Below, in pieces: positions 1,670-63,553 of a DNA stretch of 64,000 bases. The DNA is from Rhodothermales bacterium (GTDB taxonomy: Bacteria; Bacteroidota; Rhodothermia; Rhodothermales; Bin80): assembly GCA_965216255.1 (NCBI GenBank), contig OZ244148.1, positions 710,623-774,622 of the forward strand. Direction: 5' to 3'. The position numbers and the translations under genes are program-made. How positions within the stretch are numbered: position 1 is the stretch's first letter; the number at the start of each line of letters is the position of its first letter. Under the pieces are notes generated by a model. It was given only the letters and a program-made list of their open reading frames with translations, ran no database searches and was not told where the DNA came from.

Positions 1670-2533
1670 TCAGTTTCCCATGATTAGCGTATCAAACGGC
1701 ACCCATGTGGCACTCAGGCGGTAGCCGGCACCGACGAACCCAAAGCCGTTTTCAACATTGTTGAGCGTTCCCGGCTGTACCAGGATTTCCGGGTCAAAAG
1801 CGCCGCCAGGCGGATCCCATTCAGCGTTGGCCACAATGAGGCGCAGCACAAGTTGCGTAAGCTTCAGACCAATAGATGCATCCACAGGAACATGCTGTTC
1901 GAGTTCACGCTGCAGCCGGCGCAGATCGGCCGCCGGCATAAGATCAATAACCCAGCCCCCGTCAACCCGCCGCTCCTTGCCGTCGTATGCCTGCGTTGAC
2001 GCACCTATTTCAATCCCGGCGGGCGAACGAAATCGGAAGCGGTAAGTTACTTCAATACGAATCAGCCTGGGAACGTTTCCTGCCACGAACGCGCGCAGAA
2101 GCACGGGTGCCAAGTCTGCCCGCGGCGGCATCGCCAGCATAGCCTCCTCTGGGACGCGCACGTCCACGCTGGAAAAGGCTCCATCGCTGCGACGGGCCAT
2201 TAGCCGGTAACTGACACCGTGCTCGGCGGCAAACGGTGCCCAGAAGACATGGGCAAATTGTCCTGCTGGCTCGAGGACCACCGAATCCCGCCATACCTGC
2301 GTCGTGCCCCGTTCCTCTGCCGTCGTCGTGACTACGGCATCCAGCGCCCCCCTACCGGCTGGCTGCAACTGGCCTTCGATGGGATACACCCGCACCCACT
2401 GCGTATCAGCCTGTGGCGTCAACGCACCGTAAATGGAAAACGGGAAGTCTGTCCCCACGATGGCTACCACGTGCTCTTCGCACGAGATTTGCGCGAGAGC
2501 TCCTGCCATAGCGAGAAGATACACGTAGCGCAT
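1670..2533 (-). CDS. Secreted/lipoprotein partner of the TonB receptor (DUF4249-like, assignment from memory)
   Basis: 287-aa ORF. The signal peptide ends ...GALAQISC. The C-terminus reads NVENGFGFVGAGYR. Its start overlaps the receptor stop (TGATG at 2531-2535), implying an operon. Confidence 0.6.
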   Translation of the reverse strand: MRYVYLLAMAGALAQISCEEHVVAIVGTDFPFSIYGALTPQADTQWVRVYPIEGQLQPAGRGALDAVVTTTAEERGTTQVWRDSVVLEPAGQFAHVFWAPFAAEHGVSYRLMARRSDGAFSSVDVRVPEEAMLAMPPRADLAPVLLRAFVAGNVPRLIRIEVTYRFRFRSPAGIEIGASTQAYDGKERRVDGGWVIDLMPAADLRRLQRELEQHVPVDASIGLKLTQLVLRLIVANAEWDPPGGAFDPEILVQPGTLNNVENGFGFVGAGYRLSATWVPFDTLIMGN

Positions 2534-4827
2534 CAGAAGGCAACCTTCAGGCCAAAAGATGGAACAACGGGCAGCTGGTCCACACGACGCAGTGTAAATA
2601 CGTCCAGGTAGAAGAGGTTGCTTCGGTCATACAGGTTGATGACGCTAGCCTGCACCGTGACATCAGCGCCGCCTGCTGCGAAAGTGCGTGCAACCGATGC
2701 ATCCAGTCGGTGATAGGCGGGCAGGCGAGCGGCGTAAGGGCGCTCATAGATCACGCGCCGGGACCCCGGCTGTGAGGCGATGCTGGTGATGTCGTCCACC
2801 GGCACAAATCCATCGAAGGCTACCGGACGGCTGAACGGCAGGCCCGAGCCGAAGGACAGTCTGGCGCTCGCTTCGAAGCCCCGCAGCGTAGCCGAAAGCA
2901 GCACGTTCAACTGGTGGCGCCGGTCGTGCGGAGGGTTGAATGCCAGGGCCTCCTCCCCGTACCACAGTTGCAACGACGCCTGCTGCGCCGCATACCGCGT
3001 GGCCGCATACCCGTAGCTCACCTGGCCATAGAATAGGCGGCGGCGCAGCTCCAGGCGCAGGTCGAAGCCGCGCACACTCCCTGTCGCCGGCTGCAGCCGC
3101 GTGGTGAAGCGCGGATATGCTGTCCATTCCGCAATATATAGATTGTCCAGACGCTTGATGAAGCTCTCCGCACGGAACTGGAGTCCTGAAGGCAACACGA
3201 GTCTGTAGCCAAAAAGAGCGTGCAGGGCCCGCTGCGCCCGTCCAGCACGCACATCGTCGCCGTCGGATTGTGGCCGCGGCGCGCTTGTCCATACAGTAAA
3301 AACGCTGGCGGCGTCGCGCCGGTCGCTAAGGCCCAGCACGGCCTGGTGGTAGAGCCCGCTGGCGGCGCTTAGCTGGTGGCGCCCGCGCTCCCACTCGATG
3401 CGCATTCTCGGCTCCACGAATGGGGCAAAGCGCATGTCGAAGAATTGAATGCGCAGGCCAGGGCGGAGGCGCAGGCCGGCACCGAACCTGAATTCGGGCT
3501 CCACGTACGTAGCCACGTGCTCGGCCTTTTGGGAAGCCACCTCAATATTCTGATACAGGCCGCCGAGCATGCTCCGCGTGGCAATCACGCGGAGTGTCAT
3601 CCCGGCGTCCACATCGGTCCTGTCGCCGTAGAACGTCGCGTCCGCGGAAAAATGCCGGTTCTCAATGCGGCCCTCCCGCGCTGGCGCCCCGGGCTGACCC
3701 AGCTCCGAAGCCAGGTAAGAATACGACGCCCGTATGTCGGCCGAAAGCGGATACTTGCGTGGCAGCACAAGGTAGCGCACGCCAGCGGACCTGTTTTCCC
3801 ACCGGACCTCGTCGGGGCTTGGTCCCTCATGGAGGCTACCCCGGTCATGGGTGCGGAGCACCAGCAGGGAAGCGCGGCTCGACGCTGTGATGCTGGCTGC
3901 CACCTTTAGGAACAGATCCCCGAAATCGAATGGAATATCGCCCCGGATAAGCCGGGAGGCCCCCTCTTTGACCAGTGACCGGCGGAGCGATGCCAACACG
4001 GAGAGCCGGCCCGGGATGAGGGGCCCCTCAAGCTGCGCACTGCTGATAAACGGCGAGAGCGTGGCGGAGCCTGCAAAGTGCTTGGTGCTTCCAGAGCGCG
4101 CCGCCACATCAATAACCGAGGATATCCGCTCTCCGAATCGGGTGCCGAAGCCGCCGGCATAGATATCGCTGCGACTGATGATGCCCGACGGGAAGGCGGA
4201 GTAGAATCCGAGAATGTGCATGGGCTGGTACACCATCACGCCGTCAATCTGGACCAGATTCTGCGCAGGCTCACCGCCACGTATGAAGAATTGTCCGCCG
4301 CGGTCCCCCACGGTCACCACGCCGGGCATGGCCGCCAGGTAGCCAGCGAGGTCACCGGTAAGGTCCGGCATGGGGATCCGGGCTATGTCGCGCGGCCGCG
4401 CGGCCACATACCCTGCCGAGCTGCGCACCCGTTCCGACTCTACGACCAATTCCCGCAGCGCAATGCCCGGCGACAACTCGATGTTCAGTACGCGGCTGTC
4501 CGCAGCCGTAAACTCGAGACTGTCCGTAAACACTTCGTACCCAATGCGGGAGGCGCTGAGCACATATCGACCCGGCTCGATGCTGGGCAGAAGGTACGAC
4601 CCGTCCAGGTCCGTCACGGTACCTTTCATGCCGCCCTGCAGTGAGGAAAGCACCACGTGGACGAGTTCCAGAGAGGTGCCCTCCTCTGCATCCGTGACAA
4701 ATCCGCGCAGCGTCTGCGCCCCCAGGAGACCGGGTGCCAGAGGGCACACCATGAAAAAGAAGACACGTAGAAGCACGCGCCACGAGGCGCCAGTCCGACG
4801 CATTGGCGCCCGTTCAGTGGCAGACAT
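2533..4827 (-). CDS. TonB-dependent outer-membrane receptor with N-terminal CarboxypepD_reg-like domain
   Basis: The track ORF is 2533..5064, but its first 79 codons overlap the divergent gene. The likely start is ATG 4827 (or 4803), giving the signal peptide RRTGASWRVLLRVFFFMVCPLAPGLLGAQ. Motifs seen: LRGFVTDAEEG...DGSYLLPSIEPGRYVLSASRIGYE (CarboxypepD_reg), GDRGGQFFIRGGEPAQNLVQIDGVMVY (plug), and a barrel ending PSFGLKVAF. Confidence 0.9.
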   Translation of the reverse strand: MSATERAPMRRTGASWRVLLRVFFFMVCPLAPGLLGAQTLRGFVTDAEEGTSLELVHVVLSSLQGGMKGTVTDLDGSYLLPSIEPGRYVLSASRIGYEVFTDSLEFTAADSRVLNIELSPGIALRELVVESERVRSSAGYVAARPRDIARIPMPDLTGDLAGYLAAMPGVVTVGDRGGQFFIRGGEPAQNLVQIDGVMVYQPMHILGFYSAFPSGIISRSDIYAGGFGTRFGERISSVIDVAARSGSTKHFAGSATLSPFISSAQLEGPLIPGRLSVLASLRRSLVKEGASRLIRGDIPFDFGDLFLKVAASITASSRASLLVLRTHDRGSLHEGPSPDEVRWENRSAGVRYLVLPRKYPLSADIRASYSYLASELGQPGAPAREGRIENRHFSADATFYGDRTDVDAGMTLRVIATRSMLGGLYQNIEVASQKAEHVATYVEPEFRFGAGLRLRPGLRIQFFDMRFAPFVEPRMRIEWERGRHQLSAASGLYHQAVLGLSDRRDAASVFTVWTSAPRPQSDGDDVRAGRAQRALHALFGYRLVLPSGLQFRAESFIKRLDNLYIAEWTAYPRFTTRLQPATGSVRGFDLRLELRRRLFYGQVSYGYAATRYAAQQASLQLWYGEEALAFNPPHDRRHQLNVLLSATLRGFEASARLSFGSGLPFSRPVAFDGFVPVDDITSIASQPGSRRVIYERPYAARLPAYHRLDASVARTFAAGGADVTVQASVINLYDRSNLFYLDVFTLRRVDQLPVVPSFGLKVAF

Positions 4828-5464
4828 GCCTTCAAGGTAGCTGCGGCATCCGGCCAATAACAAGACAGCGGCTTTTTGTACCTTCCAAGGTTTAATCTTC
4901 GAGGGCACCATGGCGGCAATGAAGGGATGGGGCATCATCGGTGCCAGTACCATTGCCCGGCAGTATATGATTGGCGCCATAAACAGGCAGCCCGACAGCC
5001 GCGCCGTGGCCGTAATGAGCCGCTCCGCAGAACGCGGTAAGCTGTTCGCGCAGGCGTGCGGCATTCCGCGATCCTATGCCACCGTAGACGGGCTGCTGGC
5101 GGACCCTGATGTTGACATCGTATATATCTGTACGACGAACGAACGGCACAAGGCCGAAACGATCGCTGCCGCGCGCAGCGGCAAGCACGTACTCTGCGAG
5201 AAGCCGCTGGCGCTGAATGTGGGTGACGCCCGGGAAATGGTGGAGACCTGCGCGCACGCAGGCCTCGTTCTGGGCACAAATCATCACCTGCGCAACGCGA
5301 TAACGCACCGTACACTGCGGCGGCTCGTTGGCGAAGGCGCCATTGGAGAGCCCCTCGCCTCGCGCGTATTCCACGCTGTATTGCTGCCGGAAAATCTCCG
5401 CACATGGCGCATCCATGACCCCGGAACCGGCGGTGGAGTAATACTTGACATTACGCTCCACGAC
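3947..5464. repeat. Direct repeat copy A (1518 bp) of the TonB-receptor 5' part + intergenic + oxidoreductase 5' part
   Basis: Aligns base-for-base with 9227-10744 at offset 5280. I counted about 14 mismatches, roughly 99% identity. Homology begins at ATAAGCCGGGAGG and ends at ...CTCCACGAC / ...GTCCACGAC. Confidence 0.95.
4910..5464 (+). pseudogene. 3'-truncated duplicate of the Gfo/Idh/MocA oxidoreductase
   Basis: The first ~185 codons are nearly identical to the intact copy at 10190. Homology stops at 5464 and the ORF then runs into unrelated sequence (stop at 5524). Confidence 0.9.
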
Positions 5465-5638
5465 CGCGATAACTTGACCTGCAAGCGCGCCGAACGTACG
5501 CAGGGATTTCTATTGTCGCGATAGGCTACAGAGACACCGCTGACGAGCAGGCCGCACACGAAAAGGCACGCTCGCCCAAGGCCATATTGTCTCCTCTTTC
5601 TTGGCACATGCCGCAACACATCGCATACACTCTGAACC

Positions 5639-6430
5639 TTAGTTGAGTAGACTTGCAACGACATCCCCAAGACACTCCTCCCAACGCGGCGTCGGCCACA
5701 TGGCCCCCTGCACTTCGAGCCTTCGATCGATGTAGTAGACAAACACTGCCTTCAATCCTTCCGACTGCCTAATCTTCGTACACTCCCGCCTGACATCTTC
5801 CGACGTCGGTTCCACGTCTCCGTAGTCACTCCAAATCGATGAGTGTTGGAGCATATCCGACACGATGATAAACGAATCAAGATCTTCGTGATGTTGAACA
5901 AGATAGGTCAACGTTTCGACGATGGGAGAACTATCGGCTTCCTTACGATCAACAAGCTTATGGAACTCCGCTCCTATATTTTGCAAAAATCGTCGGAATT
6001 CAATTTCTACTACCCGCGGGTTCTCGTACAGCACATTTGCCATGGCGCCCTGTTTTGGAATACACCATGAGCGACCCGTTTGCCTCGGGATCTCATCCTC
6101 CGATTCCGGTAGCCCGTAGATTGACAGCTTCTGAAGGAAGGGCACCTGGAGCGTATCTCGCACCAACGCACCGATCCTCTCAAACGCTGCTTCCCCGTCT
6201 TCTTCCAAGATCTCGTTGGATGTATCGATCAAGATTACCGTATGCCCGGGAACTTCAATTTGTTCCTGAAGCTGTGGCCAAGTCCCCATCGGGCAATACC
6301 CATCCGCAAACCGAACACGGAGTTGGTCGGCATACCACAACCTATAGCCGAAGAATACTACTATGACTGCCAATATTACCAAGACCGGTATCGGCCAGCG
6401 ATCATTGATCCAGTCGAGGCGACCAGTCAT
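5639..6430 (-). CDS. Membrane-anchored protein of unknown function, possibly a divergent vWA-like fold
   Basis: 263-aa ORF with one N-terminal TM helix (WPIPVLVILAVIVVFFGYRLW). It then reads HTVILIDTSNE (DxSxS-like), ...ADSSPIVETL..., ...FIIVSDML..., in the order of vWA MIDAS elements. GC is clearly lower than the flanks. The fold call is weak and motif-based. Confidence 0.55.
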   Translation of the reverse strand: MTGRLDWINDRWPIPVLVILAVIVVFFGYRLWYADQLRVRFADGYCPMGTWPQLQEQIEVPGHTVILIDTSNEILEEDGEAAFERIGALVRDTLQVPFLQKLSIYGLPESEDEIPRQTGRSWCIPKQGAMANVLYENPRVVEIEFRRFLQNIGAEFHKLVDRKEADSSPIVETLTYLVQHHEDLDSFIIVSDMLQHSSIWSDYGDVEPTSEDVRRECTKIRQSEGLKAVFVYYIDRRLEVQGAMWPTPRWEECLGDVVASLLN

Positions 6431-6648
6431 CTTTCACCCGTGCCGTTAAAAACTAACGGCCATTGTATACTATAGTTGAAGTCGGCGGCGGTGATTTCGC
6501 ACCCGCCGTCTTTTTCTTGGGCCTCAGTAGCGCCCATGCTTTTACCAAGGACAACAAGCCCTGGTCACGCCAGTTCAAGCTTGGCACGCGGCTTATGCGC
6601 TCAAATCTCATGCGTGCTTCTTCTTTCCTGCTCATGGTGTACGCACCA

Positions 6649-7462
6649 CTAATTCTTTGTAGAGCACGCGATGTCCAACCAGCTTGCCTTTACGTGCAGC
6701 ATTTGAGCCACCGTTTCTAGCGGGCGCATGTTGTGCTTGCCCGCAAACTGCGCCACGTACCTGTGCAGGTGCTGCTTGTCGAATTGGTGATACGTGCCAT
6801 GATAAACCCGCTTCAACATAACCCTAGCGGATTCCGCTCTTTCGTTGTGCGCCACGCCGGTGACGTATTCGCTGCCGCTGTGTCTAACAGTTCCAGACTT
6901 CATTCCGTTCATATCCCCGTAGGCTACCGCTTCGTCCGCGTCCACGATCCACCCGCATCCAGCTGTGCATGTTCCTCTCCAAGCCACCCACGTAGGTCTC
7001 CTCAACCGCGGTTGGGCCTGCACACAGCGGGGGCAACCTGCATTCAGTTCCTCGCGAATAAACTGTAACATGAACCAAGCTGTCACTCAAGGCACACCAA
7101 GTTCGCAGTGCAGTTTCATGCTGGACACGCTTTTGGAATGGTGGATTCGAAATAAATGGCCCAACCCCAAATTCGTCAAGGCAAATTAATAGATTCGATT
7201 GCCGTGCCGGTCTTGGCGCTGCAGTACTTCTTGCATGCATGGCATCGGTACTGCATTGTTTCCCGGTTGACCTCATAACACGTCCAAATTGCCGCAACGC
7301 ACGCAGGTGCACCCACTCGCGGAACATTACGACAACATCAATCCACTTGCGGGTCGCCGCCTCGTCTGGCATCATGTCTACCAACTCCATAATTGTGATA
7401 CCCTTGTAGAGTGATCGTCGTACTCTAGTCATTTTATTCCCCGATCTCGGATGGTTACGCAA
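6649..7462 (-). mobile_element. Degenerate IS1595/ISXO2-like transposase pseudogene
   Basis: Two overlapping frames (6884..7462 and 6649..7086). The C-terminal piece GVAHNERAESARVMLKRVYHGTYHQFDKQHLHRYVAQFAGKHNMRP matches the ISXO2-like transposase tail (HTN.IE.FW..LKR...G.YH....KHL..Y..EF..R.N.R). It is frameshifted and much too short. Confidence 0.6.
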
Positions 7463-7491
7463 ATCATGCGAATCATTAGCCTAAATGCCAA

Positions 7492-8862
7492 CTAGTTGGA
7501 TGACAACTTAAGTGGTCCACATATGACCTTTTCGTATTTCTTCCATAAGTCATCGACATGTTTCGCTTCGTCGGCAATCTTGGAAAAGAACTCCTCTTGT
7601 CCAGAATTAGTCCAATCAGCAATCTGCTCGTCGGCTAATTTCAAGACCGTCCTATCCGCTGGAGTTGCCGGAAAAGACAAACCGACCCGTAGACTTTCGC
7701 GATGCTTCTGCAACATCTTTAGATCAATCTCATCAACGTGATTGATATTGTAGGCAATTACGAAATGAGATAGAATGGAGTGCAAAGATATTTCTTCGGT
7801 CCAATCCTGCTCCAGATCCTCGAATCGATTCTTCGCCTCAAGGTTGTCTAAGGCCAGCTCCTCAACCCATCCCGCGACCTCAGGACGAATCTTGTCGGTT
7901 AGTATTTTTCGGAATTCTTGGGAGAGCGCATTAAATTCCTCAAGGACCTGAGTTCGTTCGTCCGCAAGATGTTTCCGCTCCTGTGATCGGCGCACACCGG
8001 GCTTCATGAAGGTATATCCCTTGTAGAAACCGGCCGCGCACAAGGCTATTCCCAATAAAAAGAATAGCAACGACTCTAGATTCCACGCCACAGGATTAAA
8101 GGAGATATCTCTTGCAATTTCCTGCAGTACCATAGCCATGTCGGTTTCCACCGCTTGGGGACCTTGCCGTGCGCTTTCGTCAATGATTCGCGCAAACGCT
8201 TCGCGATGCCGACCGACGAGCAAGTTGAGTCCGAGAACCAAAAGACCCCATAAGGCGCACGCCGGGCCAAGCCAACGGCGGTAGGCGGAGTTCCTGTGTA
8301 TACTGGACATGAGCAGGCCGCTGCCCGCGCCTAGAGCTGCAACATTAATGGTTGAGACAAGAACGGCGGTTATAAAGGCTCCCAGCATGCCCGTTGGCAG
8401 CACTGATGCCAAAAGGGAGACATTTGCCGCGGCTTCGATCACGATGAAAACAGCCAAGACCGCTGTAAATTTTAGCCAGTCGTTTGTTGTCTTGGGGTCA
8501 GATAGATCCGGCGGTGCATCCCTCGATTCAACGTTCTTCCAGTTTTCTTGGAAGTCTAAACTGCGTTGACGCAGAGCCAAGAGCGCGTTCTCTGCATCGA
8601 TCCTCACTTGGCTAGGGCGCTTTGAACATTCGAACTTCCAGCCGTTGAGAGGTTTGCCGAGCATCGAGCGAAGCTTTCCTAGGACAATATTGATGGCTTG
8701 CTGGAAAGTGGTCTGGATCTCGGCGAGTAATCTGAGATGCGCTGACCTCCACTCACTGCTGGTGTTTTCAGCTATGCTCGTTGCCCTTTTGCATAGCGCT
8801 TCGAGATCAATGCCGAAGCCTGTGAAATTCGGGTCGAATGTACTATAGCGGGTAGAATTCAT
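7492..8862 (-). CDS. Four-TM membrane protein with long helical N- and C-terminal soluble domains, unknown function
   Basis: The track ORF is 7492..8913; the likely ATG is at 8862 (MNSTRYSTFDPNF). Hydrophobic helices: WLKFTAVLAVFIVIEAAANVSLLASVL, GAFITAVLVSTINVAALGAGSGLLM, WLGPACALWGLLVLGLNLLVG, LESLLFFLLGIALCAAGFY. The tails are charged and coiled-coil-like. GC was about 45% in the line I counted. Confidence 0.7.
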   Translation of the reverse strand: MNSTRYSTFDPNFTGFGIDLEALCKRATSIAENTSSEWRSAHLRLLAEIQTTFQQAINIVLGKLRSMLGKPLNGWKFECSKRPSQVRIDAENALLALRQRSLDFQENWKNVESRDAPPDLSDPKTTNDWLKFTAVLAVFIVIEAAANVSLLASVLPTGMLGAFITAVLVSTINVAALGAGSGLLMSSIHRNSAYRRWLGPACALWGLLVLGLNLLVGRHREAFARIIDESARQGPQAVETDMAMVLQEIARDISFNPVAWNLESLLFFLLGIALCAAGFYKGYTFMKPGVRRSQERKHLADERTQVLEEFNALSQEFRKILTDKIRPEVAGWVEELALDNLEAKNRFEDLEQDWTEEISLHSILSHFVIAYNINHVDEIDLKMLQKHRESLRVGLSFPATPADRTVLKLADEQIADWTNSGQEEFFSKIADEAKHVDDLWKKYEKVICGPLKLSSN

Positions 8863-8922
8863 AATGCCTAGTACTTGTACTGTACCCCTAACGTTGCACA
8901 GAATTGCGATCAACTCAAGAAA

Positions 8923-9226
8923 TTAAGGCCGCCTGGTCATGGGTAATAGCGGGACAAGACTGTCCCAATGGGCATGGGTTGGCATTGTGGTTGAAGTCAT
9001 TGTCTTGTTGGTCTCCGGCAGACCTGCATAGACGGCATATGGTATGCGGTACTGCAGTCCCTGGTGGGGATGCTGGTGGATGTAGAATGCAAAGTACGCC
9101 TCCAAACGCTGCCGTGCCTTTGGCAGGGTCGTGTATTCGTAGAGATAGACCTCCTCATACCCCGCGCTGCGCCAGAGACGCTCGATCATGATGTTGTCGT
9201 AGCACCGGCCGCGGCCGCCAATCGAT
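8923..9226 (-). mobile_element. IS3-family transposase 3' remnant (rve C-terminal part), fused in frame to the truncated TonB receptor copy
   Basis: The chimeric ORF 8923..10344 switches at nt 9226/9227 from receptor sequence (...SLVKGGASRLI) to GGRGRCYDNIMIERLWRSAGYEEVYLYEYTTLPKARQRLEAYFAFYIHQHPHQGLQYRIPYAVY. That is the conserved IS3/IS150-type integrase-core tail. Confidence 0.8.
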
Positions 9227-10107
9227 ATAAGCCGGGAGGCCCCCCCTTTGACCAGTGACCGGCGGAGCGATGCCAACACGGAGAGCCGGCCCGGGATGAG
9301 GGGCCCCTCAAGCTGCGCACTGCTGATAAACGGCGAGAGCGTGGCGGAGCCTGCAAAGTGCTTGGTGCTTCCAGAGCGCGCCGCCACATCAATAACCGAG
9401 GATATCCGCTCTCCGAATCGGGTGCCGAAGCCGCCGGCATAGATATCGCTGCGACTGATGATGCCCGACGGGAAGGCGGAGTAGAATCCGAGAATGTGCA
9501 TGGGCTGGTACACCATCACGCCGTCAATCTGGACCAGATTCTGTGCAGGCTCACCGCCACGTATGAAGAATTGTCCGCCGCGGTCCCCCACGGTCACCAC
9601 GCCGGGCATGGCCGCCAGGTAGCCAGCGAGGTCACCGGTAAGGTCCGGCATGGGGATCCGGGCTATGTCGCGCGGCCGCGCGGCCACATACCCTGCCGAG
9701 CTGCGCACCCGTTCCAACTCTACGACCAATTCCCGCAGCGCAATGCCCGGCGACAATTCGATGTTCAGGACGCGGCTGTCCGCAGCCGTAAACTCGAGAC
9801 TGTCCGTAAACACTTCGTACCCAATGCGGGAGGCGCTGAGCACATATCGACCCGGCTCGATGCTGGGCAGAAGGTACGATCCGTCCAGGTCCGTCACGGT
9901 ACCTTTCAGGCCGCCCTGCAGTGAGGAGAGCACCACGTGGACGAGTTCCAGAGAGGTGCCCTCCTCTGCATCCGTGACAAATCCGCGCAGCGTCTGCGCC
10001 CCCAGGAGACCGGGTGCCAGAGGGCACACCATGAAAAAGAAGACACGTAGAAGCACGCGCCACGAGGCGCCAGTCCGACGCATTGGCGCCCGTTCAGTGG
10101 CAGACAT
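9227..10107 (-). pseudogene. 3'-truncated duplicate of the TonB-dependent receptor (signal peptide, CarboxypepD_reg and plug only)
   Basis: Nearly identical to the first ~295 codons of the 2533..4827 gene. It ends at the IS3 junction. Confidence 0.9.
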
Positions 10108-10744
10108 ACCTTCAAGGTAGCTGCGGCATCCGGCCAATAACAAGACAGCGGCTTTTTGTACCTTCCAAGGTTTAATCTTCGAGGGCATCATGGCGGCAAT
10201 GAAGGGATGGGGCATCATCGGTGCCAGTACCATTGCCCGGCAGTATATGATTGGCGCCATAAACAGGCAGCCCGACAGCCGCGCCGTGGCCGTAATGAGC
10301 CGCTCCGCAGAACGCGGTAAGCTGTTCGCGCAGGCGTGCGGCATTCCGCGATCCTATGCCACCGTAGACGGGCTGCTGGCGGACCCTGATGTTGACATCG
10401 TATATATCTGTACGACGAACGAACGGCACAAGGCCGAAACGATCGCTGCCGCGCGCAGCGGCAAGCACGTACTCTGCGAGAAGCCGCTGGCGCTGAATGT
10501 GGGTGACGCCCGGGAAATGGTGGAGACCTGCGCGCACGCAGGCCTCGTTCTGGGCACAAATCATCACCTGCGCAACGCGATAACGCACCGTACACTGCGG
10601 CGGCTCATTGGCGAAGGCGCCATTGGAGAGCCCCTCGCCGCGCGCGTATTCCACGCTGTATTGCTGCCGGAAAATCTCCGCACATGGCGCATCCATGACC
10701 CCGGAACCGGCGGCGGAGTAATACTTGACATTACGGTCCACGAC
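9227..10744. repeat. Direct repeat copy B (partner of 3947-5464)
   Basis: See copy A. Beyond 10744 the oxidoreductase continues intact. Confidence 0.95.
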
Positions 10745-11203
10745 ACGGATACGCTTCGCTTCGTGCTGGACGACGAAGTGGAGGAAGTCACCGCGCTGTC
10801 TGCGCAGCAGGGTCTGGCCTCTGCAGGCCTCGAAGATACCGTTATGGGCGTCATGCGCTTCAAGGGCGGCCTCCTCGCCCAGTTCCACGATGCGTTCACG
10901 GTTGCGCATGCGGGCACAGGCATGGAAATCCACTGCACGGAAGGCTCGCTTATCGCAGAGGATGTAATGACGCAGAAGCCCATCGGCCAAGTCTTTCTCC
11001 GGCGGGCAGAGGGCCGCACGGCCGTCGCCCTGGGCACGCACGAAGACCTCTACACGCGGGCCGTTCGGCGCTTCAATCGTGCGGTCGACGGAGGCTGCGA
11101 GCCTGCCGCCACGGCAGAGAACGGCGTGCGTTCACTGGCCGTCGCCCTAGCCGTACTCGAGTCCGCGCGCACCGGCCGGCGCGTCAGGGTGCGCTACTCC
11201 TAG
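10190..11203 (+). CDS. Gfo/Idh/MocA-family NAD(P)-dependent oxidoreductase
   Basis: 337-aa ORF. It has the N-terminal Rossmann motif WGIIGASTIARQYMIGAI and ...VYICTTNERHKAETIAAARSGKHVLCEKPLAL (the EKP motif). Confidence 0.85.
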   Translation: MAAMKGWGIIGASTIARQYMIGAINRQPDSRAVAVMSRSAERGKLFAQACGIPRSYATVDGLLADPDVDIVYICTTNERHKAETIAAARSGKHVLCEKPLALNVGDAREMVETCAHAGLVLGTNHHLRNAITHRTLRRLIGEGAIGEPLAARVFHAVLLPENLRTWRIHDPGTGGGVILDITVHDTDTLRFVLDDEVEEVTALSAQQGLASAGLEDTVMGVMRFKGGLLAQFHDAFTVAHAGTGMEIHCTEGSLIAEDVMTQKPIGQVFLRRAEGRTAVALGTHEDLYTRAVRRFNRAVDGGCEPAATAENGVRSLAVALAVLESARTGRRVRVRYS

Positions 11204-12823: not shown

Positions 12824-13576
12824 ATGGCTACTGTAGACCTCCGTGAGCTAGGGCCTGTTGCCGTGGTCACGCTGGCACGCCCCGAGAAACTCAACGCGCT
12901 GGACCCGGCGATGCTGCGCGCACTCGACGAGGCGGTGGCCTCGCTGGAGCAAAGCGCGCACGTGCGCGCCGTCGTCTTGGCCGCAGCCGGCGAGCGGGCC
13001 TTCTGTGTAGGGGCCGATATTCATGCCTGGGCCTCGCTGAGCCCCCTGGACGTGTGGCGCACGTGGATCCGGGAAGGGCACCGCGTAGTGGAGCGCCTGG
13101 CGCAGCTGCGCATGCCCGTTCTTGCCGCCATCCAAGACTATGCGCTGGGGGGCGGCCTGAAGATATCCCTGGCAGCAGACCTGCGCATAGCCGCAGATAC
13201 GGCATCTTTCGGCATGCCTGATGTCTCCATCGCCACCGTTCCGGGCTGGGGCGGCACATCCAGGCTTCCGGCCCTGATAGGGTCGGCCCGCGCCAAGGAG
13301 ATGATATTTCTGGGCCGCCGCATCAGTGCACCCGTGGCCATGGATTGCGGACTGGTTAACGCGGTCATGCCACGGGCCGAGGTGTTGGCGCACGCCCTGG
13401 AACTGGCCCAGCACATTGCGGCACAGGCTCCGGTGCAAATGGCTAAGGAAATCATCAACGGCGATGCACCCACGCTGGAGGCCCCGGCGGGTGCGCTGTC
13501 CGCCTTCACGAAGGATGCCGGGGAAGGCTTGGCCAGCTTCACTGAGCGGCGCCCCAACAGCTACCAGGGGCAGTGA
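12824..13576 (+). CDS. Enoyl-CoA hydratase/isomerase (crotonase) family protein
   Basis: 250 aa with the motifs VAVVTLARPEKLNAL, RAVVLAAAGERAFCVGADI, PVLAAIQDYALGGGLKISLAADLRIA. Confidence 0.85.
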   Translation: MATVDLRELGPVAVVTLARPEKLNALDPAMLRALDEAVASLEQSAHVRAVVLAAAGERAFCVGADIHAWASLSPLDVWRTWIREGHRVVERLAQLRMPVLAAIQDYALGGGLKISLAADLRIAADTASFGMPDVSIATVPGWGGTSRLPALIGSARAKEMIFLGRRISAPVAMDCGLVNAVMPRAEVLAHALELAQHIAAQAPVQMAKEIINGDAPTLEAPAGALSAFTKDAGEGLASFTERRPNSYQGQ

Positions 13577-13577
13577 A

Positions 13578-15161
13578 ATGGATACGTACGACTACATCGT
13601 TGTCGGAGCCGGCGCCAGCGGCTGTGTAGTGGCAAGCAGGCTCAGCGAAGATGCTCGCACGCGCGTTCTTCTCTTGGAGGCCGGGGGGGCGGACGCATCG
13701 CCGCTCATCCACATGCCCGCAGGGTTCACCAAGCTCACAGGGCCGAAGGTGAACTGGGGATTCCGGACCGTGCCGCAGAAGCATGTGGATAGCCGCGAGA
13801 TGCATTACCCGCAGGAACGTACCCTCGGGGGCAGCACCTCCATCAACGCCATGATCTATATCCGGGGCCACCGACTGGATTTCGACGAGTGGAAGGCACT
13901 GGGGTGCGACGGCTGGGGCTACGATGACGTGCTGCCATTTTTCCGGAAGTCGGAACACAATGAGCGGTTCGTCAATCGGTATCACGCCCAGGGCGGAGAG
14001 CTCAGCGTGGCAGACCAGACCCAGCACAACGTCCTAACCAGAGCCTTCGTGCGGGCGGCACAGCAGATAGGCATCAGGTACAACCCGGACCTGAACGGTA
14101 GCGAGCAGGACGGCGTAAGCTATTACCAGGTCACGCAGCGAAACGTGCGCCGCGAGAGCGCGGCCACCGCCTTCATCCGGGCCCAGGAGCAGCGGCCGAA
14201 TTTGGAGGTGCGCACACATGCCCAGGCATCGCGGGTTATTCTGGAAAAGGGCCGGGCCCGCGGCGTGGCGTACATACGTGGCCGCCGCCGCATGGAAAGG
14301 GTGTATGCCGAGCGCGAGGTGATCCTCAGCGGCGGCGCTGTCAATTCGCCCAAGCTTCTCCTGCTCTCCGGCATTGGTCCTGCGGACGAGTTGCTACGGC
14401 ACGGCATCATCGTCGAGCATGACCTACCCGGCGTGGGCAGAAATTTTCAGGACCACATGGACGTGTACATAGCAGCCGCGTGCAGCCAGCCCGTCAGCTA
14501 CAATGGACACGGCAGGTGGAACCGGGCGCTGCGGCACGGCCTGCAGTACATGCTCTACAAAACGGGCCCGGTAACGGCATGTGTGGCGGAAGCCGGCTGC
14601 TTCGTGCGCAGCTCCAGCGATGTACGCTCGCCGGATATCCAGATCCACTGCCTGCCCGCGTATGTGGTGGACCATGGCCGCATCCGCGGGCACGGCATCA
14701 CCATCAGCACGTGCAACCTGCGCCCCAATAGCATCGGTTCCGTGACGCTGCGCAGCGCTGATCCACTAGATATGCCGGCCATCGATCCGAATTTCCTGGA
14801 CGACCCATACGATTTACGCATCTCGACTGAGGGCTTTCGGTGGGGTCGGCGAATTCTTGCCGCCCCTTCGCTGCGGCCCTTCATCGATAAAGAACTGCTT
14901 CCCGGCGCCGGGACCCGGACAGATGAAGACATTGCCACCTACATTCGCAAGTGGTCCAAGAATGACTACCACCCAGCGGGCTCCTGCAAGATGGGATGCG
15001 ACGAGGCTGCCGTGGTGGATCCCCGACTGCACGTGCACGGCATCGAAGGACTCCGCGTCATAGACGCCTCCATCATGCCGCGCCTCGTTAGCGGCAACAC
15101 GCAGGCCACCTCCATCATGATCGGCGAAAAAGGGGCAGCCATGATCCAGGAAACCGCCTGA
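13578..15161 (+). CDS. GMC-family FAD oxidoreductase (choline/alcohol dehydrogenase-like)
   Basis: The real start is probably ATG 13578 (MDTYDYIVVGAGASGCVVASRLSED, the FAD GxGxxG motif). GMC signatures are present: GGSTSINAMIYIRG and ...HPAGSCKMG...VHGIEGLRVIDASIMP. Confidence 0.9.
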   Translation: MDTYDYIVVGAGASGCVVASRLSEDARTRVLLLEAGGADASPLIHMPAGFTKLTGPKVNWGFRTVPQKHVDSREMHYPQERTLGGSTSINAMIYIRGHRLDFDEWKALGCDGWGYDDVLPFFRKSEHNERFVNRYHAQGGELSVADQTQHNVLTRAFVRAAQQIGIRYNPDLNGSEQDGVSYYQVTQRNVRRESAATAFIRAQEQRPNLEVRTHAQASRVILEKGRARGVAYIRGRRRMERVYAEREVILSGGAVNSPKLLLLSGIGPADELLRHGIIVEHDLPGVGRNFQDHMDVYIAAACSQPVSYNGHGRWNRALRHGLQYMLYKTGPVTACVAEAGCFVRSSSDVRSPDIQIHCLPAYVVDHGRIRGHGITISTCNLRPNSIGSVTLRSADPLDMPAIDPNFLDDPYDLRISTEGFRWGRRILAAPSLRPFIDKELLPGAGTRTDEDIATYIRKWSKNDYHPAGSCKMGCDEAAVVDPRLHVHGIEGLRVIDASIMPRLVSGNTQATSIMIGEKGAAMIQETA

Positions 15162-23387: not shown

Positions 23388-25553
23388 CCCATCTTTACCT
23401 TTTCACTCAAGAAAGCCCGGCAGAATAGGCAAATATGAATCCTTCGGTCACTACAATGGGCTGCAAGGTGAGTTTCGCAGTTGCTCAGAAGGTCGTCTTG
23501 TGCATGGGAAGAGGCACCGGATTGATGCCAAGTGCTTCGTAGATTTCCCGTTGGTCAGCATCTGGATAGGAGGTCGTGCGGACATGGAGCGTGTAGCCGC
23601 TCCGGGCTTCGAAGACGCTGGTCGTGCGCACCTGGCTCCGAAGGATCCTCCGGAGCGTTGTCCAGCTTGAGCGCAGCCCGACCGCGCGCAAACGCTTCCG
23701 GATCACCTGCACCAGTTGGTAGGCCAGCACCGTGATAAACAGATGGCCTTCTGCGCGCCGGCCCGTGGAGTGATAGATCGGCCTGAGGCCCAGCTCCGAC
23801 TTCAGGGACCGGAACACCGCCTCCAGGTCGGTCAGCATCACGTACGTGCGCCAGAGCTCTTCCGCGGAGAGGTCCATCTCGTTGCTGCGTAGGCAATAGA
23901 CGCCCGGATCGCTCAGCATGGTGCCCGCCTTCGGCGTCTGTTTCCATGTGATTGACTTTGCCCGCTTGCCCTTTTTATCCGGCTCCACTTTGATCTCGTA
24001 ATGCTGCCCGATGCCGCCGAAGCATTGCTTCATACGAGCGATGCGCTCCCTTATGAGGTCCAGGCGCTTGTGCGTCTTCGGCCGGGAAAGCCCCTCGGAA
24101 AGCTTGCCGAGGGCCTCCTCGAATCGTTCCGCTTTCTGCTTCATCATGGCCTCTTCCTTCGCTATGCGGGCCCCGCTGCGACAGTAGAGCCGCACCTCGT
24201 CGTCTGCCTCCTCCCGGTATATCTCTACGTCGCTGCCCGAGGACGTCTGAAGGGACTCTGCCTTCTGCTCGTCAAAAGGCTTCCTGCGCTCTCTTGACAC
24301 GACGATGTAGCCATAGCCCTCCTTGCGCAGCCAGTCTATGCGGTCCTTCGTGGCTACGCCCCGGTCCATCACCACGCGTGCGCCCTTGGGCGCCCCCAGC
24401 GACTCAAGCATCTTCTTGAGCGTGGACGCTTCGTTTACATTGCCCTTGAAGACCCGACTGCGACGCACGAACCCGCTGCCGTCTACTACCAGAGCCAGCG
24501 TAAGCAGCACGCAGCCATGACGCCGCTGCTTCGAGTGTCCGCGCTTCGCCTTGTCGATCCCCTTGCCACTGCCTTCCAGGAAACTGCCCTTCAGGTCATA
24601 AAGCGCGATCGTAGGCTCCAGATCAAACAGATCCATGGCTCGTGCAAAGAGGTGGTCCTCTATGACCTTGCGGTGCTTCTGCAGCATGTCGCTGGCCCGG
24701 TAGAGCTGCATGTCGGCCATCTTCTCGAAGTTGCAGCCCAGAAACTCGTCCAGTCCGCTGGCAGAGGCCAGCCACTGCTTCGTGGCATGTTCGCTGGCCG
24801 GATCGGCCAGGCGTCCTATGATGGAACCCGTGGCAGCATGCTGGAGACCTCGTGCCATCTCAAGCTTCTCGAAGAGCTCAGGCAGGCCCAACTGTTCCAT
24901 GGCCCAGAGCCCTACATGCTCCACGCCCACCGTGCGGGGCCGGAGCGTCTTGAGCGAATGGATGTCCACATGGTGCCACTCGCGCGGCGGCCTGCCGCTG
25001 GCGTCTCGTTCCACGGTCTGCGCGCGGCGTGCGCTTACGAGTAAGGCAATGCGCTGAGCCTCCTCTTCTACGGAGGCGGGCAGCTCTTCGGGAACCAGTT
25101 CCAGCTGCCCGTTCAGCAGGGCCTCGATGCGCCGGCACAAGGGGCGCCAGTAGCGTTCTTCGACGCTGAAGTGGGCGCCGAGATTGAGGAGGGTCTGGCG
25201 CTGCACCTTTTTGCCCCGGCGCTTGGACTGGCAGAGGCTGAAGGTATAGTAGCGCGTGCTGTCGGAGGACTTACGGGTGAGGGAGCGGCAGATGAACATG
25301 CAGACAAGATAGGGGGAATGGGATCCGGCCGCAAGCCCTTCCAACATAATATGTCACTACATTCATGAACAACCAACATATAAATCCTGAAATGGGGAAG
25401 CGGGGTGCGATGGACGATCAAACCAAGCCAGAAAAGCACCACGGGTGGGGGCTCATCCCTAAAAAATGTCTAGAATTCCTAAAAACACTTCGGATTCCTA
25501 AAGGCGGCTATCGCCTATCTTCCATATTTTACGCCTCAAAAGGTAAAGATGGG
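23388..25553 (-). mobile_element. IS1634-like (IS4 superfamily) insertion sequence, copy 1, 2166 bp
   Basis: Perfect 16-bp terminal inverted repeats: CCCATCTTTACCTTTT at 23388-23403 and its complement at 25538-25553. A 4-bp direct repeat GTAG flanks it (23384-23387 and 25554-25557). Confidence 0.85.
23485..25299 (-). CDS. IS1634-family DDE transposase
   Basis: Track ORF 23485..25347; the probable start is MFICRSLTRK.. at 25299, by comparison with copy 2. Motifs: YYTFSLCQSKRRGKKVQRQTLLNLGAHF, VVMDRGVATKDRIDWLRKEGYGYIVVSR, YHSTGRRAEGHLFITVLAYQLVQVIR. Confidence 0.85.
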   Translation of the reverse strand: MFICRSLTRKSSDSTRYYTFSLCQSKRRGKKVQRQTLLNLGAHFSVEERYWRPLCRRIEALLNGQLELVPEELPASVEEEAQRIALLVSARRAQTVERDASGRPPREWHHVDIHSLKTLRPRTVGVEHVGLWAMEQLGLPELFEKLEMARGLQHAATGSIIGRLADPASEHATKQWLASASGLDEFLGCNFEKMADMQLYRASDMLQKHRKVIEDHLFARAMDLFDLEPTIALYDLKGSFLEGSGKGIDKAKRGHSKQRRHGCVLLTLALVVDGSGFVRRSRVFKGNVNEASTLKKMLESLGAPKGARVVMDRGVATKDRIDWLRKEGYGYIVVSRERRKPFDEQKAESLQTSSGSDVEIYREEADDEVRLYCRSGARIAKEEAMMKQKAERFEEALGKLSEGLSRPKTHKRLDLIRERIARMKQCFGGIGQHYEIKVEPDKKGKRAKSITWKQTPKAGTMLSDPGVYCLRSNEMDLSAEELWRTYVMLTDLEAVFRSLKSELGLRPIYHSTGRRAEGHLFITVLAYQLVQVIRKRLRAVGLRSSWTTLRRILRSQVRTTSVFEARSGYTLHVRTTSYPDADQREIYEALGINPVPLPMHKTTF

Positions 25554-25560
25554 GTAGGTA

Positions 25561-27346
25561 GTGCTTGTACGAAAATACTTTAAATCTTCAATAAACAATC
25601 GGTTATATCTTGCAATTGGCGCTGAATCTGAGGGACGTATAGCCGATTCGGGCGTTTAAGAGCGCAAAACAGCTCACATTCGCCAGGGAAACCATGCGCA
25701 AGATTGTCCCAGAGTGCCGTGCACTCGACAGTACGCCGATTGAGGAGATTGCCATAGACCCGAGAATGCGCGACGACATGAGTGCGGTGCTCAAGGGTCT
25801 GCAGTGCGTCTACTGCACGGCGGAATCCCGTGCGGCCTTGTTCGCGATTCTGGAGGCGCACTTTCAGCCGGGTAAACGTAAAGATGTCGGACGACCGGGC
25901 ATGGATCTATGGCGCGTCATCGTGTTTGCGATAGTCAAGCAGTGCCTGGATCTGGACTACGATGCTTTGTTGTACCGGGCCAACAACGATCTCTTGCTGC
26001 GGGAGCTCTTGGGGCACGGAGATGCCGGGTTTGACGAGGTGAAGTACAGCAGACAGCGGCTGGTGGACAACGTGCAGCTTTTGACGCCGAAGCTGGTCCG
26101 GAAGGTGGCCCAATTGATAGTGCGGACGGGGCACAAGGTGGCTGGAAAAGAGTCTGGGACCGCGCTAGCCGGTCGCTGCGATTCCAGGGTGGTTAAGACG
26201 CATGTGCACTATCCCACCGATGTGGGTCTGTGCTGGGATGCGGTTCGTGGTCTAATACGTGTGAGTGCACGCTCGGCTGCGGCATTCGCTCTTCCGGGCT
26301 GGCGCAAGCATGCGGATCGCACGCGGAAGATATACCAGGCCTTCATCCGGGTGCGGACGGCCCCGCGCTACCGGCAGAATCCGAAAGGAGTGAAGGCGTA
26401 CTTGCGCCAGTGCACACAGACTGCAGCACGTGCCCGTACGCTGTTAAATGCCTTGGCCACAGTGGAGAAATCGGAGGCGGCGCGAGCGGATATCGCGTAT
26501 TACTTGCGCTATGTGGACTTGTTGGTGGATCAAGTAAGGCGTCGCATCCTCTTGGGCGAGATGATTCCACATGCGCAGAAAGTGTTTTCCATCCACAAGC
26601 CACATACGCGTTGGATCAGCAAAGGCAAGGCGGGCGTGCTGGCGGAGCTGGGCCTTCCGGTCGCACTGGTAGAAGATGAGCACCGGTTCATTTTGGCTTA
26701 TCACATCCTGTGGGACACATCAGATGTTGAGGTGGCGGTACCGATCATTGATGCGGTGCAGGCGGCTTTTCCAGAGTTCAATGCGTGCAGTTTTGACCGG
26801 GGCTTTCACAGCTTGAAGAATCGAAAAGCATTGGATGCTCGGCTGGCGCTCAATGCGCTTCCGAAGAAGGGCAAGCTTTCTCTGGCGGAGCGTGCGCGGG
26901 AGCGCGCGCCTGCGTTCAAGGCAGCGCGGCGGCAGCACCCGGCCGTCGAGTCGTGTCTGGCCAATTTCGGACTTCGGGGCGGTGCGCTGGTGCGGGAGAA
27001 GAGTCCGGAGAACTTCGCGCTGATGGTGAGCCTGTCCGTGCTGGCAGTCAACATGCACCGGCTGGGTTGCCTGGTGCGCGCCCAGGAACGGGCACGAATA
27101 AAGCGTCGGCGAAAACGCGCGGCGTAGGCCCGCTACCACCTCGCAGAAAGGTCCCAATCGCAGGCTCCAAGGGACACGTATGCCCTTCCGATAGGAACAC
27201 AACGCCCTTCGAGCCGCAAACTGCCCGTGCGCGCACGCAAGAGACGCCAGCATGGCCGAAACACTCGAAGCGGACCGTCAACGAACTCAAAAAACGACCG
27301 TGCCGGTGCATTCGAGGCCGAAAAAAGAGAGTATTCGGTCAATCAC
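25561..27346 (+). mobile_element. ISNCY/IS5-like insertion sequence (DUF772 + DDE_Tnp_1 type transposase), copy 1, 1786 bp
   Basis: Imperfect terminal inverted repeats: GTGCTTGTACGAAAATAC versus the complement of GAGTATTCGGTCAATCAC. A 6-bp target duplication TAGGTA lies at 25555-25560 and 27347-27352. It inserted 7 bp from the IS1634 end. Confidence 0.85.
25694..27127 (+). CDS. DDE transposase (DUF772 N-domain, IS4/IS5-type catalytic domain)
   Basis: 477 aa with GRPGMDLWRVIVFAIVKQCLDLDYDALLYRANNDLLLRELLGH (DUF772-like), CDSRVVKTHVHYPTD and CSFDRGFHS. Two further copies are in the window. Confidence 0.85.
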   Translation: MRKIVPECRALDSTPIEEIAIDPRMRDDMSAVLKGLQCVYCTAESRAALFAILEAHFQPGKRKDVGRPGMDLWRVIVFAIVKQCLDLDYDALLYRANNDLLLRELLGHGDAGFDEVKYSRQRLVDNVQLLTPKLVRKVAQLIVRTGHKVAGKESGTALAGRCDSRVVKTHVHYPTDVGLCWDAVRGLIRVSARSAAAFALPGWRKHADRTRKIYQAFIRVRTAPRYRQNPKGVKAYLRQCTQTAARARTLLNALATVEKSEAARADIAYYLRYVDLLVDQVRRRILLGEMIPHAQKVFSIHKPHTRWISKGKAGVLAELGLPVALVEDEHRFILAYHILWDTSDVEVAVPIIDAVQAAFPEFNACSFDRGFHSLKNRKALDARLALNALPKKGKLSLAERARERAPAFKAARRQHPAVESCLANFGLRGGALVREKSPENFALMVSLSVLAVNMHRLGCLVRAQERARIKRRRKRAA

Positions 27347-27535
27347 TAGGTAGGCGCAAGGCGCAACTAGCGGCCCGCTGCGACCCTGAATCCCGCGCGG
27401 ACGCGGATCCCACCTGTTTCAGCCTTGGGATACCTGCTTTCGCTTGCGGGAAGTCGACCGCCGCGTGCCGGACAATCCGGAATGTTTTCGCCCTTTCTGA
27501 CGCCCAAATCCGTCGTTTCCGGCCTTCGGCGCGCT

Positions 27536-38748: not shown

Positions 38749-38763
38749 CGGCGCGGCCGCGAA

Positions 38764-38802
38764 GCGCAGCCGGCGGGGGCATTCCGCCTCTGCCGGCTGC
38801 GC
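38764..38802 (+). terminator. Hairpin 16 nt after the giant gene stop (11-bp stem GCGCAGCCGGC / GCCGGCTGCGC, 17-nt loop), no U-tract
   Basis: Arms read directly at 38764-38774 and 38792-38802. Confidence 0.35.
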
Positions 38803-38857
38803 CAATCTGGCCTGGAAGGATACACCGTGACAGCCTGCAAATGGAGCCTGGCAGCAA

Positions 38858-48399: not shown

Positions 48400-48893
48400 G
48401 CCACCAGGCCGCTACGTGCCGGGAGTTCGGATTCGGGTTGCGCCGTGCAAACTTCGGTCCCTTCCCCACGGGCACCGCCGGATTCACCGGGGCTGTCCCA
48501 CGCAAAAGGCAGCGTTAGCTGGATTTTCTGCCGCATTGCTCGCATGAGCTTGCCGTCCTACTACCCCTGTCCATTGTTCGGGCCTTCGTCGGCTAAGCCG
48601 ACTACTATGCCCTGGTATAGTAGGATACTATTTCAAGTGAAGATTACATGAAGAGTTTTGGCTTGACCTCTGGAGAAGCGACCGGGCGGCTTCGACGGCT
48701 AATCAATCTGGTATTCGCGTGCTAAGCCCCGAAGGACCATAACGCATGATTTCGGTTTCGACGGGAGCTGCCACTATCTCTGAACGCGCGCTCACCAGCA
48801 AGAGAGCTGGCTATCGCAAGGGCATATCGTGGGTTCTCCTTACCGTGCCCGATCGCTTCTCCATAGGCCATTTCTTTGGTTACAAGATACGAG
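48400..48893 (-). mobile_element. Group II intron 5' fragment (ribozyme domains upstream of, and the first ~40 codons of, the intron-encoded protein)
   Basis: Minus ORF 48312..48545 begins MRAMRQKIQLTLPFAWDSPGESGGARGEGTEVCTAQPESE. The pattern QL.L.F....GE....GEGTE....ES is the N-terminus I associate with bacterial group II intron RT/maturases. The RT domain itself is absent. The extent is approximate. Confidence 0.4.
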
Positions 48894-63536: not shown

Positions 63537-63553
63537 CAGTTAGCCTGGCGCAC

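Follow-up and report, generated by a model that had tools for sequence, protein, structure and literature searches.

We analyzed a stretch of 64,000 nucleotides (hereafter the window) from a Rhodothermales bacterium (GenBank assembly GCA_965216255.1, contig OZ244148.1, positions 710,623 to 774,622), in which a gene for a TonB-dependent receptor and a divergent gene for a Gfo/Idh/MocA oxidoreductase each occur once intact and once truncated. The duplicated parts form a direct repeat around an insert, the cargo, which holds two genes that we call c456 and c263 and the remnants of two insertion sequences (IS). The left and right joints between repeat and cargo are called J1 and J2 (Table 1). The locus is an old insertion-duplication that spared both native genes; its joints are illegitimate and its topology is that of a Campbell (single-crossover) product.

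Alignment of the two repeat copies, A on the left and B on the right at an offset of 5280 bp, gave 14 mismatches and no gap (99.08% identity). In the numbering of copy A the mismatches lie at 3965, 4264, 4436, 4477, 4489, 4600, 4629, 4648, 4828, 4908, 5327, 5360, 5434 and 5456. The edges of the repeat are sharp: positions 3944-3946 and 5465-5467 mismatch at every base, and beyond the repeat the identity is at chance level. The insert between the copies (5465-9226, 3762 bp) has a GC content of 0.517, compared to 0.62 in the repeats and 0.64 in the flanks and, judged by composition, is foreign DNA. No further copy of the repeat or of the insert was found in the 64-kb window. Each repeat copy consists of a 106-bp divergent intergenic region and the 5' parts of the receptor and oxidoreductase genes. 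Copy A goes with the intact receptor and copy B with the intact oxidoreductase, each next to the truncated version of its partner, and the observed duplication around the insert is real. These results agree with the first-pass annotation, which had described direct repeats with about 14 mismatches at this offset, one intact receptor in the left copy and one intact oxidoreductase in the right copy with truncated partners, a receptor fused in frame to an IS3 transposase tail at 9227, and a low-GC foreign insert with IS1595 and IS3 remnants; alignment, open reading frames (ORFs), domains and base composition bear out these points. The divergent region that it had placed at 10108-10189 is corrected to 10084-10189 (4804-4909 in copy A).

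Table 1. Features of the duplicated locus and its insert, in window coordinates
Feature	Position	Strand	Remarks
TonB-dependent receptor, intact	ORF 2533..5064	(-)	Pfam CarboxypepD_reg and Plug; probable start 4803
Repeat copy A	3947..5464		1518 bp; runs on leftward into the remainder of the receptor gene
Divergent intergenic (putative promoter) region, copy A	4804..4909		Between receptor start 4803 and oxidoreductase start 4910
Truncated oxidoreductase-T fusion	4910..5524	(+)	204 aa; Pfam GFO_IDH_MocA and a partial C-terminal domain
Cargo left end	5465..5638	(+)	3' end of foreign gene T (5465-5524) and spacer to c263
c263, second cassette gene	5639..6430	(-)	N-terminal membrane helix and von Willebrand factor A (vWA)-like alpha/beta domain
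IS1595-family element, dead	~6674..7500 (approximate)	(-)	Between c456 and c263; many frameshifts and stops
c456, first cassette gene	7492..8862	(-)	All-helical membrane and coiled-coil protein
IS3-family 3'-end remnant	8863..9226	(-)	Transposase C-terminal codons from 9225 to ~9030; IS terminus not located
Chimeric receptor-IS3 ORF	8923..10083 (long ORF 8923-10344)	(-)	386 aa from the receptor start
Repeat copy B	9227..10744		1518 bp; runs on rightward into the remainder of the oxidoreductase gene
Divergent intergenic (putative promoter) region, copy B	10084..10189		On the minus strand faces the chimeric ORF, then c456; assigned by position only
Gfo/Idh/MocA oxidoreductase, intact	10190..11203	(+)	Heads a conserved operon; synteny with L001-L003

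At J1 (between 5464 and 5465), residues 1-185 of the oxidoreductase continue in frame into the 19 terminal codons of a foreign gene, T, which encode RDNLTCKRAERTQGFLLSR up to the stop codon. This tail is homologous to the C-terminus (ending in RDNVTGKRTENTQDLLLER before the stop) of a gene that lies convergent to the c263 homologue in contig L036. The DNA of L036 aligns with window positions 6683-5450 at 75% identity, which takes the alignment 15 bp past J1, and in this patch (5450-5464) 11 of 15 bases match the T homologue, a proxy that is itself only 75% identical. We take the left end of the cargo to be the truncated 3' end of the native neighbour gene of the c456-c263 pair, probably joined at a short patch of imperfect homology. 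At J2 (between 9226 and 9227), the N-terminal 286 aa of the receptor (373 in the long ORF) are fused in frame to an IS3 transposase tail. Residues 373-437 of the long chimeric ORF match positions 303-367 of the 369 in the IS3 model, and about 100 transposase codons are left. The exact 386-aa chimeric product is a called gene of the source genome.

Neither joint lies at an IS terminus or an attachment (att) site: J1 falls in the 3' end of a non-IS gene and J2 inside a transposase gene. A search of the insert ends for a short (2-14 bp) target duplication or terminal inverted repeats gave only chance-level matches, and no inverted repeats pair 5465 with 9226. Since both joints lie inside unrelated genes, with no terminal repeats and no replicon or integrase, the cargo is read as an arbitrary foreign fragment of chromosomal type and the joints as illegitimate. 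Both J1 and J2 keep the native frame of both partners, for which the chance is about 1 in 9; we treat this double in-frame fusion as a coincidence.

Two explanations were discarded on this anatomy. Transposition with target-site duplication is ruled out by the 1518-bp length of the duplication together with the lack of paired terminal inverted repeats. A simple tandem duplication followed by a separate insertion was rejected, as the insert sits exactly at the join point and no base of either copy is lost.

Read on the minus strand, the direction of the receptor gene, the insert holds the IS3 3' end, c456, the dead IS1595 element and c263. The homologues of c456 (37 clusters) and of c263 (83 clusters) include none with a Pfam domain, and Pfam has no match for c456 or c263 itself either. 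The start M1 of c456 is conserved in the alignment; its model (pLDDT 84.9) found no match in the PDB beyond meaningless coiled-coil ones. The AlphaFold model of c263 (pLDDT 86.4) was matched by Foldseek to vWF A domains and the Sec24 trunk in the PDB (E ~3e-5), with a target-normalised TM score of up to 0.54 for vWF A. Residues D69 and S71 of c263 are invariant within the motif D-T-S-N-E, and the third serine of the DxSxS metal ion-dependent adhesion site (MIDAS) motif is absent. Against the PADLOC defence models, c456 gave no match and c263 only a chance-level one to SspG (E 0.012).

A homologue of c263 lies directly downstream of a c456 homologue in 8 of 8 contigs inspected (L006-L012 and L037), and the neighbours of the cassette vary by contig (dnaE, ilvC, PorV and radical-SAM genes; loci L006-L012, L036 and L037). 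The named relatives of these contigs belong to Gemmatimonadota, Acidobacteriota and Bacteroidota. The two genes, which the first-pass annotation had called orphans, thus are a conserved two-gene cassette without an assigned family, split here by IS1595. As the cassette genes stay adjacent in 8 contigs with differing neighbours, the cargo is best seen as ordinary foreign DNA and not as a mobile element.

Domain and profile searches of the cargo recovered no replication, mobilisation or integrase gene, and neither the cargo DNA nor c263 matched any entry of the plasmid and phage collections. Of IS1595, Pfam DDE_Tnp_IS1595 and NCBIfam IS1595 matched a fragment, and its zinc-ribbon and DDE pieces are spread over three frames; imperfect 19-bp inverted repeats at 6674-6692 and 7482-7500 match at 15 of 19 positions. 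Of IS3, about 300 bp remain (rve_3, and NF033516 over the model positions given above). Its transposase tail shares 40-56% aa identity with IS3 transposases of the ISAba14 and ISPpy1 types, which are found on plasmids.

The age of the structure was approached through a second strain. An exact-sequence cluster look-up returned L013, a 15,959-bp contig of an unrelated ENA metagenome assembly; we call the strain behind it S2 and the window genome S1. Contig L013 encodes the 204-aa truncated oxidoreductase together with c263 at 96% identity, and it aligns in one gap-poor piece with window positions 6726-4818, across J1, at 97.96% identity. Because J1 is common to S1 and to a strain about 2% diverged, the structure of the left joint is older than the S1/S2 split, and its presence in the independent S2 assembly argues against misassembly at J1.

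Beyond 6726, S2 resumes at window position 48293. This joint, J3 (L013 9704-9707), shows a 4-bp microhomology, GGCG, and four extra bases, and relative to the window order it amounts to a loss of about 41.5 kb. Because IS1595 runs on without a break over 6726/6727 in the window, J3 is derived, and on the same ground the S2 arrangement was rejected as the ancestral state. J3 reads as a microhomology deletion or rearrangement that would have removed, at that place, everything from the remaining cargo over J2 and copy B up to 48.29 kb. The sample of S2 (ERZ25067264) also holds a low-coverage contig of 31.7 kb, L038 (ctg797290_2x_l), which at 97.5% identity is collinear with window 28277-41467. 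Hence what looks like a 41.5-kb loss may be a relocation or a polymorphism within that sample.

Two further differences between S1 and S2 were observed near the shared joint. In c263, 7 of the 15 substitutions fall within a 32-bp stretch (5944-5975), and 10 of the 15 across the gene are nonsynonymous, a pattern that points to a patch of local recombination or to selection that is relaxed or positive. Beside the joint, S2 carries an island (L013 1468-4897) with a TIR_2-domain protein and an AAA_15/ABC ATPase with a small partner gene; such content is typical of defence islands. The matching window region (50961-53639) has an AAA_13/AAA_21 protein instead.

The 14 mismatches between the copies fall into the receptor part (8, of which 5 synonymous and 3 nonsynonymous), the intergenic region (2) and the oxidoreductase part (4, of which 1 synonymous and 3 nonsynonymous). 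Outgroup proteins clearly polarise three amino-acid differences, and all three are derived in the truncated halves: S210L in copy B, on the left, and A151S and V183L in copy A, on the right. This layout fits a crossover near the intergenic region and plain decay of the truncated halves alike. Over the 647 bp shared with S2, a three-way comparison gave 4 alleles unique to A (3 nonsynonymous), 7 unique to S2 and 2 unique to B, both intergenic. Intact copy B thus has no unique coding change, and 4 of the 6 differences between A and B in this segment are changes unique to truncated A.

With only two B-unique sites in 647 bp, copy B lies no more than 0.3% from the common ancestor of the A and S2 copies, and the three-way pattern places the divergence of the copies at the strain split at about 0.3% at most. 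The truncated copies have each gained approximately 0.6-1.1% of changes, mostly nonsynonymous. Copies A and B diverge by 0.93% in both halves, close to the roughly 1-1.3% to be expected if, at an S1-S2 distance of about 2%, one half of each pair decayed neutrally with the other under constraint. Among the differences assignable to one copy, most are later, largely neutral decay of the truncated gene halves. Taken together, the mismatches are in keeping with an event of about the age of the strain split and with decay of the pseudogenes after it.

The native locus is known in single copy from distant relatives, which are the nearest genomes available for this comparison (64-78% aa identity). 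In L001 and L002, both metagenome-assembled genomes of Rhodothermales, the receptor gene is divergent from the oxidoreductase gene, the cargo is absent and the neighbours on either side are those of the window. The gene order of L003 is alike, except that a LacI-family regulator gene (L003 8388-9533) separates the two, which suggests that the locus is a sugar or inositol utilisation cluster. The first-pass annotation had proposed to compare related genomes for the single-copy arrangement; it was found in these distant genomes, and no close strain with an empty site was found. Receptor orthologues share 57-68% aa identity in L001-L004 and 48% in L005. The receptor start at 4803 is that of the database gene call, which puts the first 857 coding bases within copy A; the database protein P0001 (756 aa) is 100% identical to the receptor and begins at residue 88 of the ORF. 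The intact oxidoreductase is followed in its operon by genes for a CoA-transferase, an enoyl-CoA hydratase and a GMC oxidoreductase. The ORFs of the last two (12824-13576 and 13326-15161) overlap by about 250 bp in different frames, an overlap that is kept in L001 (6761-7516 and 5173-7002).

To account for the duplicated locus, we propose that a linear foreign fragment was integrated in one step, by two illegitimate joints in crossed order, a reading to which we give a probability of about 0.4. The ends of the cargo are joined in crossed order, the left one to 5464 and the right one to 3947, so that the 1.5 kb is present twice and each gene keeps an intact copy. The two joints would form across sister chromatids or by template switching at a replication fork, and the insertion and the 1.5-kb duplication would arise together in a single step. 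Of the routes considered, this one needs the fewest events.

Several points weigh against this proposal. One-step crossed illegitimate integration with a kilobase-scale duplication is rare and poorly documented in bacteria, and a Campbell crossover gives the same topology by a well-known reaction. J2 was found in no strain besides the window genome, and the age of J2 and of copy B rests on no direct observation. The presence of L038 leaves the history of S2 not fully clear. No close strain with an empty site was found in a GTDB species scan, a JGI metagenome scan and a search of 5.8 billion proteins, in which the best matches reached 68% aa, 66% and 72% identity, respectively (the last being the receptor match next after the source genome). 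The microhomology at J1 was judged through a homologue only 75% identical, and neither the window nor the compared loci hold a close IS3 copy for the same comparison at J2. Through gene conversion, the copies could have lost older differences from each other. Finally, there are only 12 coding differences (6 synonymous and 6 nonsynonymous; P = 0.076 for at least 6 synonymous, against a random expectation of 27%), which makes tests of selection weak.

The first-pass annotation had explained the locus by Campbell integration, and of the alternatives this one survives best; we regard it as possible, with odds clearly below even. Here a 5.28-kb circle, made of the 1.5-kb segment and the cargo, would have crossed over once within the segment; in a variant, a larger plasmid-like element with a chromosomal fragment on it would have been trimmed later by two deletions. 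The topology is exactly the predicted one, with one intact copy of each gene left, the relatives are single-copy at the locus, homologous recombination over 1.5 kb is known to be efficient, and microhomology deletions do happen in the lineage (J3 in L013), so that trimming at a later time is plausible. As a last step, a Campbell crossover is fully adequate. What the locus lacks is a recognisable circular molecule: the cargo has no replicon, mobilisation gene or integrase, no IS end at its joints and no plasmid or phage match. Moreover, the circle would already have to hold J1 and J2 as products of illegitimate events: an earlier strain with the cargo beside the segment, a second such event that closed the circle and its passage to a cell whose locus was uninterrupted would all be required.

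Other parts of that explanation did not hold. An IS-generated translocatable unit is contradicted by the joints, neither of which is at an IS terminus, by the IS3 element being cut inside its transposase gene, and by IS1595 being internal and dead. Import from a related strain is not required by the mismatches; most of the assignable ones are decay of the truncated copies, and copy B has no unique coding change over the 647 bp compared. As we read it, the annotation also implied a recent event and set this against an old structure carried by related strains; the finding of J1 in a strain about 2% diverged comes close to the latter. In comparison with Campbell products, insertion-duplication mutants made with non-replicating circular DNA and merodiploids, the locus shares direct repeats of the homologous segment that flank the insert and are each continuous with one native flank, and a structure that recombination between them can reverse; unlike them, it has no identifiable circular vehicle, both insert ends are arbitrary breakpoints within genes, and it is old.

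In another scheme, a form of homology-facilitated illegitimate recombination, the insertion comes first and the restoration later. Cargo with a complete IS3 would have entered or replaced part of the oxidoreductase gene, and DNA of an uninterrupted strain would then have restored the gene and brought in copy B, with a homologous exchange on the right and an illegitimate one on the left, at 9226 within IS3. J1 occurs in S2 too, and only the window genome is known to have J2 and copy B; this agrees with such an order of events, as does the position of copy B at 2 of 647 sites from the A/S2 ancestor, which fits a donor from the same population. That homology on one side can combine with one illegitimate joint is also well established (PMC3240628; Hulter and Wackernagel 2008, cited in PMC12359135). 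We nevertheless find this improbable: a donor with the whole 1.5-kb segment would far more often recombine on both sides and delete the insert, no known strain has a complete IS3 at the site, and the scheme takes more events than the other models.

We give still less credit to a large tandem duplication followed by a deletion, in which the cargo would once have stood some kilobases away on the same chromosome, an unequal exchange would have made one joint and a later deletion the other. The surrounding 64 kb is IS-rich and rearranged between strains, which suits such a history, but a second cargo copy should then lie nearby. None is present in the window (only 3.9 kb could be inspected on the left), and two independent illegitimate events plus the loss of that copy would be needed. 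An assembly artefact, by a mis-join of strain variants or a chimeric read, is very improbable in spite of repeats that are 99% identical and related strains with other arrangements, since J1 recurs in an independent assembly from another sample, J2 joins sequences without shared homology, which makes a mis-join in the graph unlikely, the genome was assembled as one 5.41-Mb contig and the 14 differences form a biologically sensible pattern.

The one-step route can be compared to several known systems. By analogy, it would be the illegitimate counterpart of interchromatid integration in pneumococcal transformation and of double illegitimate recombination. In the pneumococcal case, a donor fragment that bridges sister chromatids leads to a tandem duplication with donor-specified sequence at the join (Johnston et al. 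2013, PMC3784515). Our locus likewise has a duplication with donor sequence at the join point; in that system the pairing is homologous (IS861 repeats) and the duplications span 100-900 kb, whereas here pairing would be illegitimate and the duplication is 1.5 kb. Homology-facilitated illegitimate recombination is on record for conjugation in E. coli (PMC3240628), and double illegitimate recombination for the uptake of foreign DNA (Hulter and Wackernagel 2008, pmid 18194157, as cited in PMC12359135). As in those cases, non-mobile foreign DNA is captured, probably at short or imperfect homologies, inside unrelated genes, with arbitrary in-gene breakpoints: J1 joins codon 185 of the oxidoreductase to T 19 codons before its stop, and J2 joins codon 373 of the receptor to about position 303 of IS3. 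De Vries and Wackernagel are said to have reported illegitimate recombination of these kinds during foreign DNA uptake in 2002. Such events usually replace or delete recipient DNA, whereas here 1.5 kb is duplicated and the microhomology is indirect and seen at J1 only.

Microhomology-mediated template switching (fork stalling and template switching, FoSTeS, or microhomology-mediated break-induced replication, MMBIR), reportedly set out by Hastings and colleagues in 2009, also resembles our proposal in that one event yields an ectopic insertion flanked by a duplication, with microhomology at the joints. It is known mainly from eukaryotes and from amplification in E. coli, and its template is normally in the same genome; the cargo here looks foreign and has no second copy in the window. 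Translocatable units of the IS26/IS6 type are small non-replicating cargo circles that can enter the chromosome by homologous recombination and need an intact boundary IS. Our insert differs in that its IS3 is truncated internally, its dead IS1595 lies in the interior and it has no IS6-family element; neither remnant encodes a functional transposase, IS1595 being broken over three frames and IS3 reduced to about 100 codons.

The arrangement may have consequences for expression and stability. The chimeric ORF ends 60 bp before c456 and no terminator-like site lies between 8923 and 8862, which makes read-through into the cassette plausible. It is also plausible from the layout that the duplicated, putative receptor promoter in copy B transcribes the chimeric ORF and then c456. 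A scan of 5300-10400 for sigma-70 promoters and terminators gave counts equal to those of shuffled controls and weighs neither for nor against read-through. Through recombination between the repeats, which are 99% identical, the insert would be lost precisely, together with one of the repeats. Although such a loss is possible, the repeats have been kept over about 1% of neutral divergence, which hints that the cassette is selected for or that the rate of recombination is low. The combined claim of a one-step crossed capture, a cassette behind a duplicated native promoter and selection that has kept the unstable repeats since before the strain split is tentative, and we hold it to be rather unlikely as a whole.

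The whole 64-kb window is a rearrangement-prone region. A 1.8-kb element occurs in three copies that are 96-97% identical (25556-27353, 59310-61081 and 61747-63544); it encodes a 477-aa protein without a Pfam match, and the cluster of this protein counts 123 members, spread over many ENA contigs. S2 lacks the third copy and has there an 8-bp overlap of the flanks, which agrees with a target duplication, and the element looks like an active, unclassified insertion sequence. An IS110-family element (48614-50098; DEDD transposase, 379 aa) is also present in the window and absent from S2. Two DDE_Tnp_1 transposase genes (23485-25347 and 41882-43873) point the same way and share 82% DNA identity; the 18-kb block between them encodes, among others, a 3438-aa Ig/PKD-repeat protein that has long internal repeats. 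The window also holds large surface-protein genes and a variable island that differs between S1 and S2.

The locus adds one more instance to the known kinds of genome plasticity in bacteria and overturns no current understanding. It illustrates that a Campbell-like picture alone is insufficient to infer a circular intermediate or a recent event, as the anatomy of the joints and one extra strain changed the reading. It also brings to light an uncharacterised, conserved cassette that moves between genomic contexts on metagenome contigs of Gemmatimonadota, Acidobacteriota and Bacteroidota type. If the one-step integration is true, a foreign two-gene cassette, made of a helical membrane protein and a membrane-anchored vWA-like protein, sits behind a duplicated native promoter (putative). 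The locus is a clean natural example of how non-mobile foreign DNA can enter a chromosome while the genes that it lands in survive, with the target duplicated, both native genes intact and a spare putative promoter for the newcomer.

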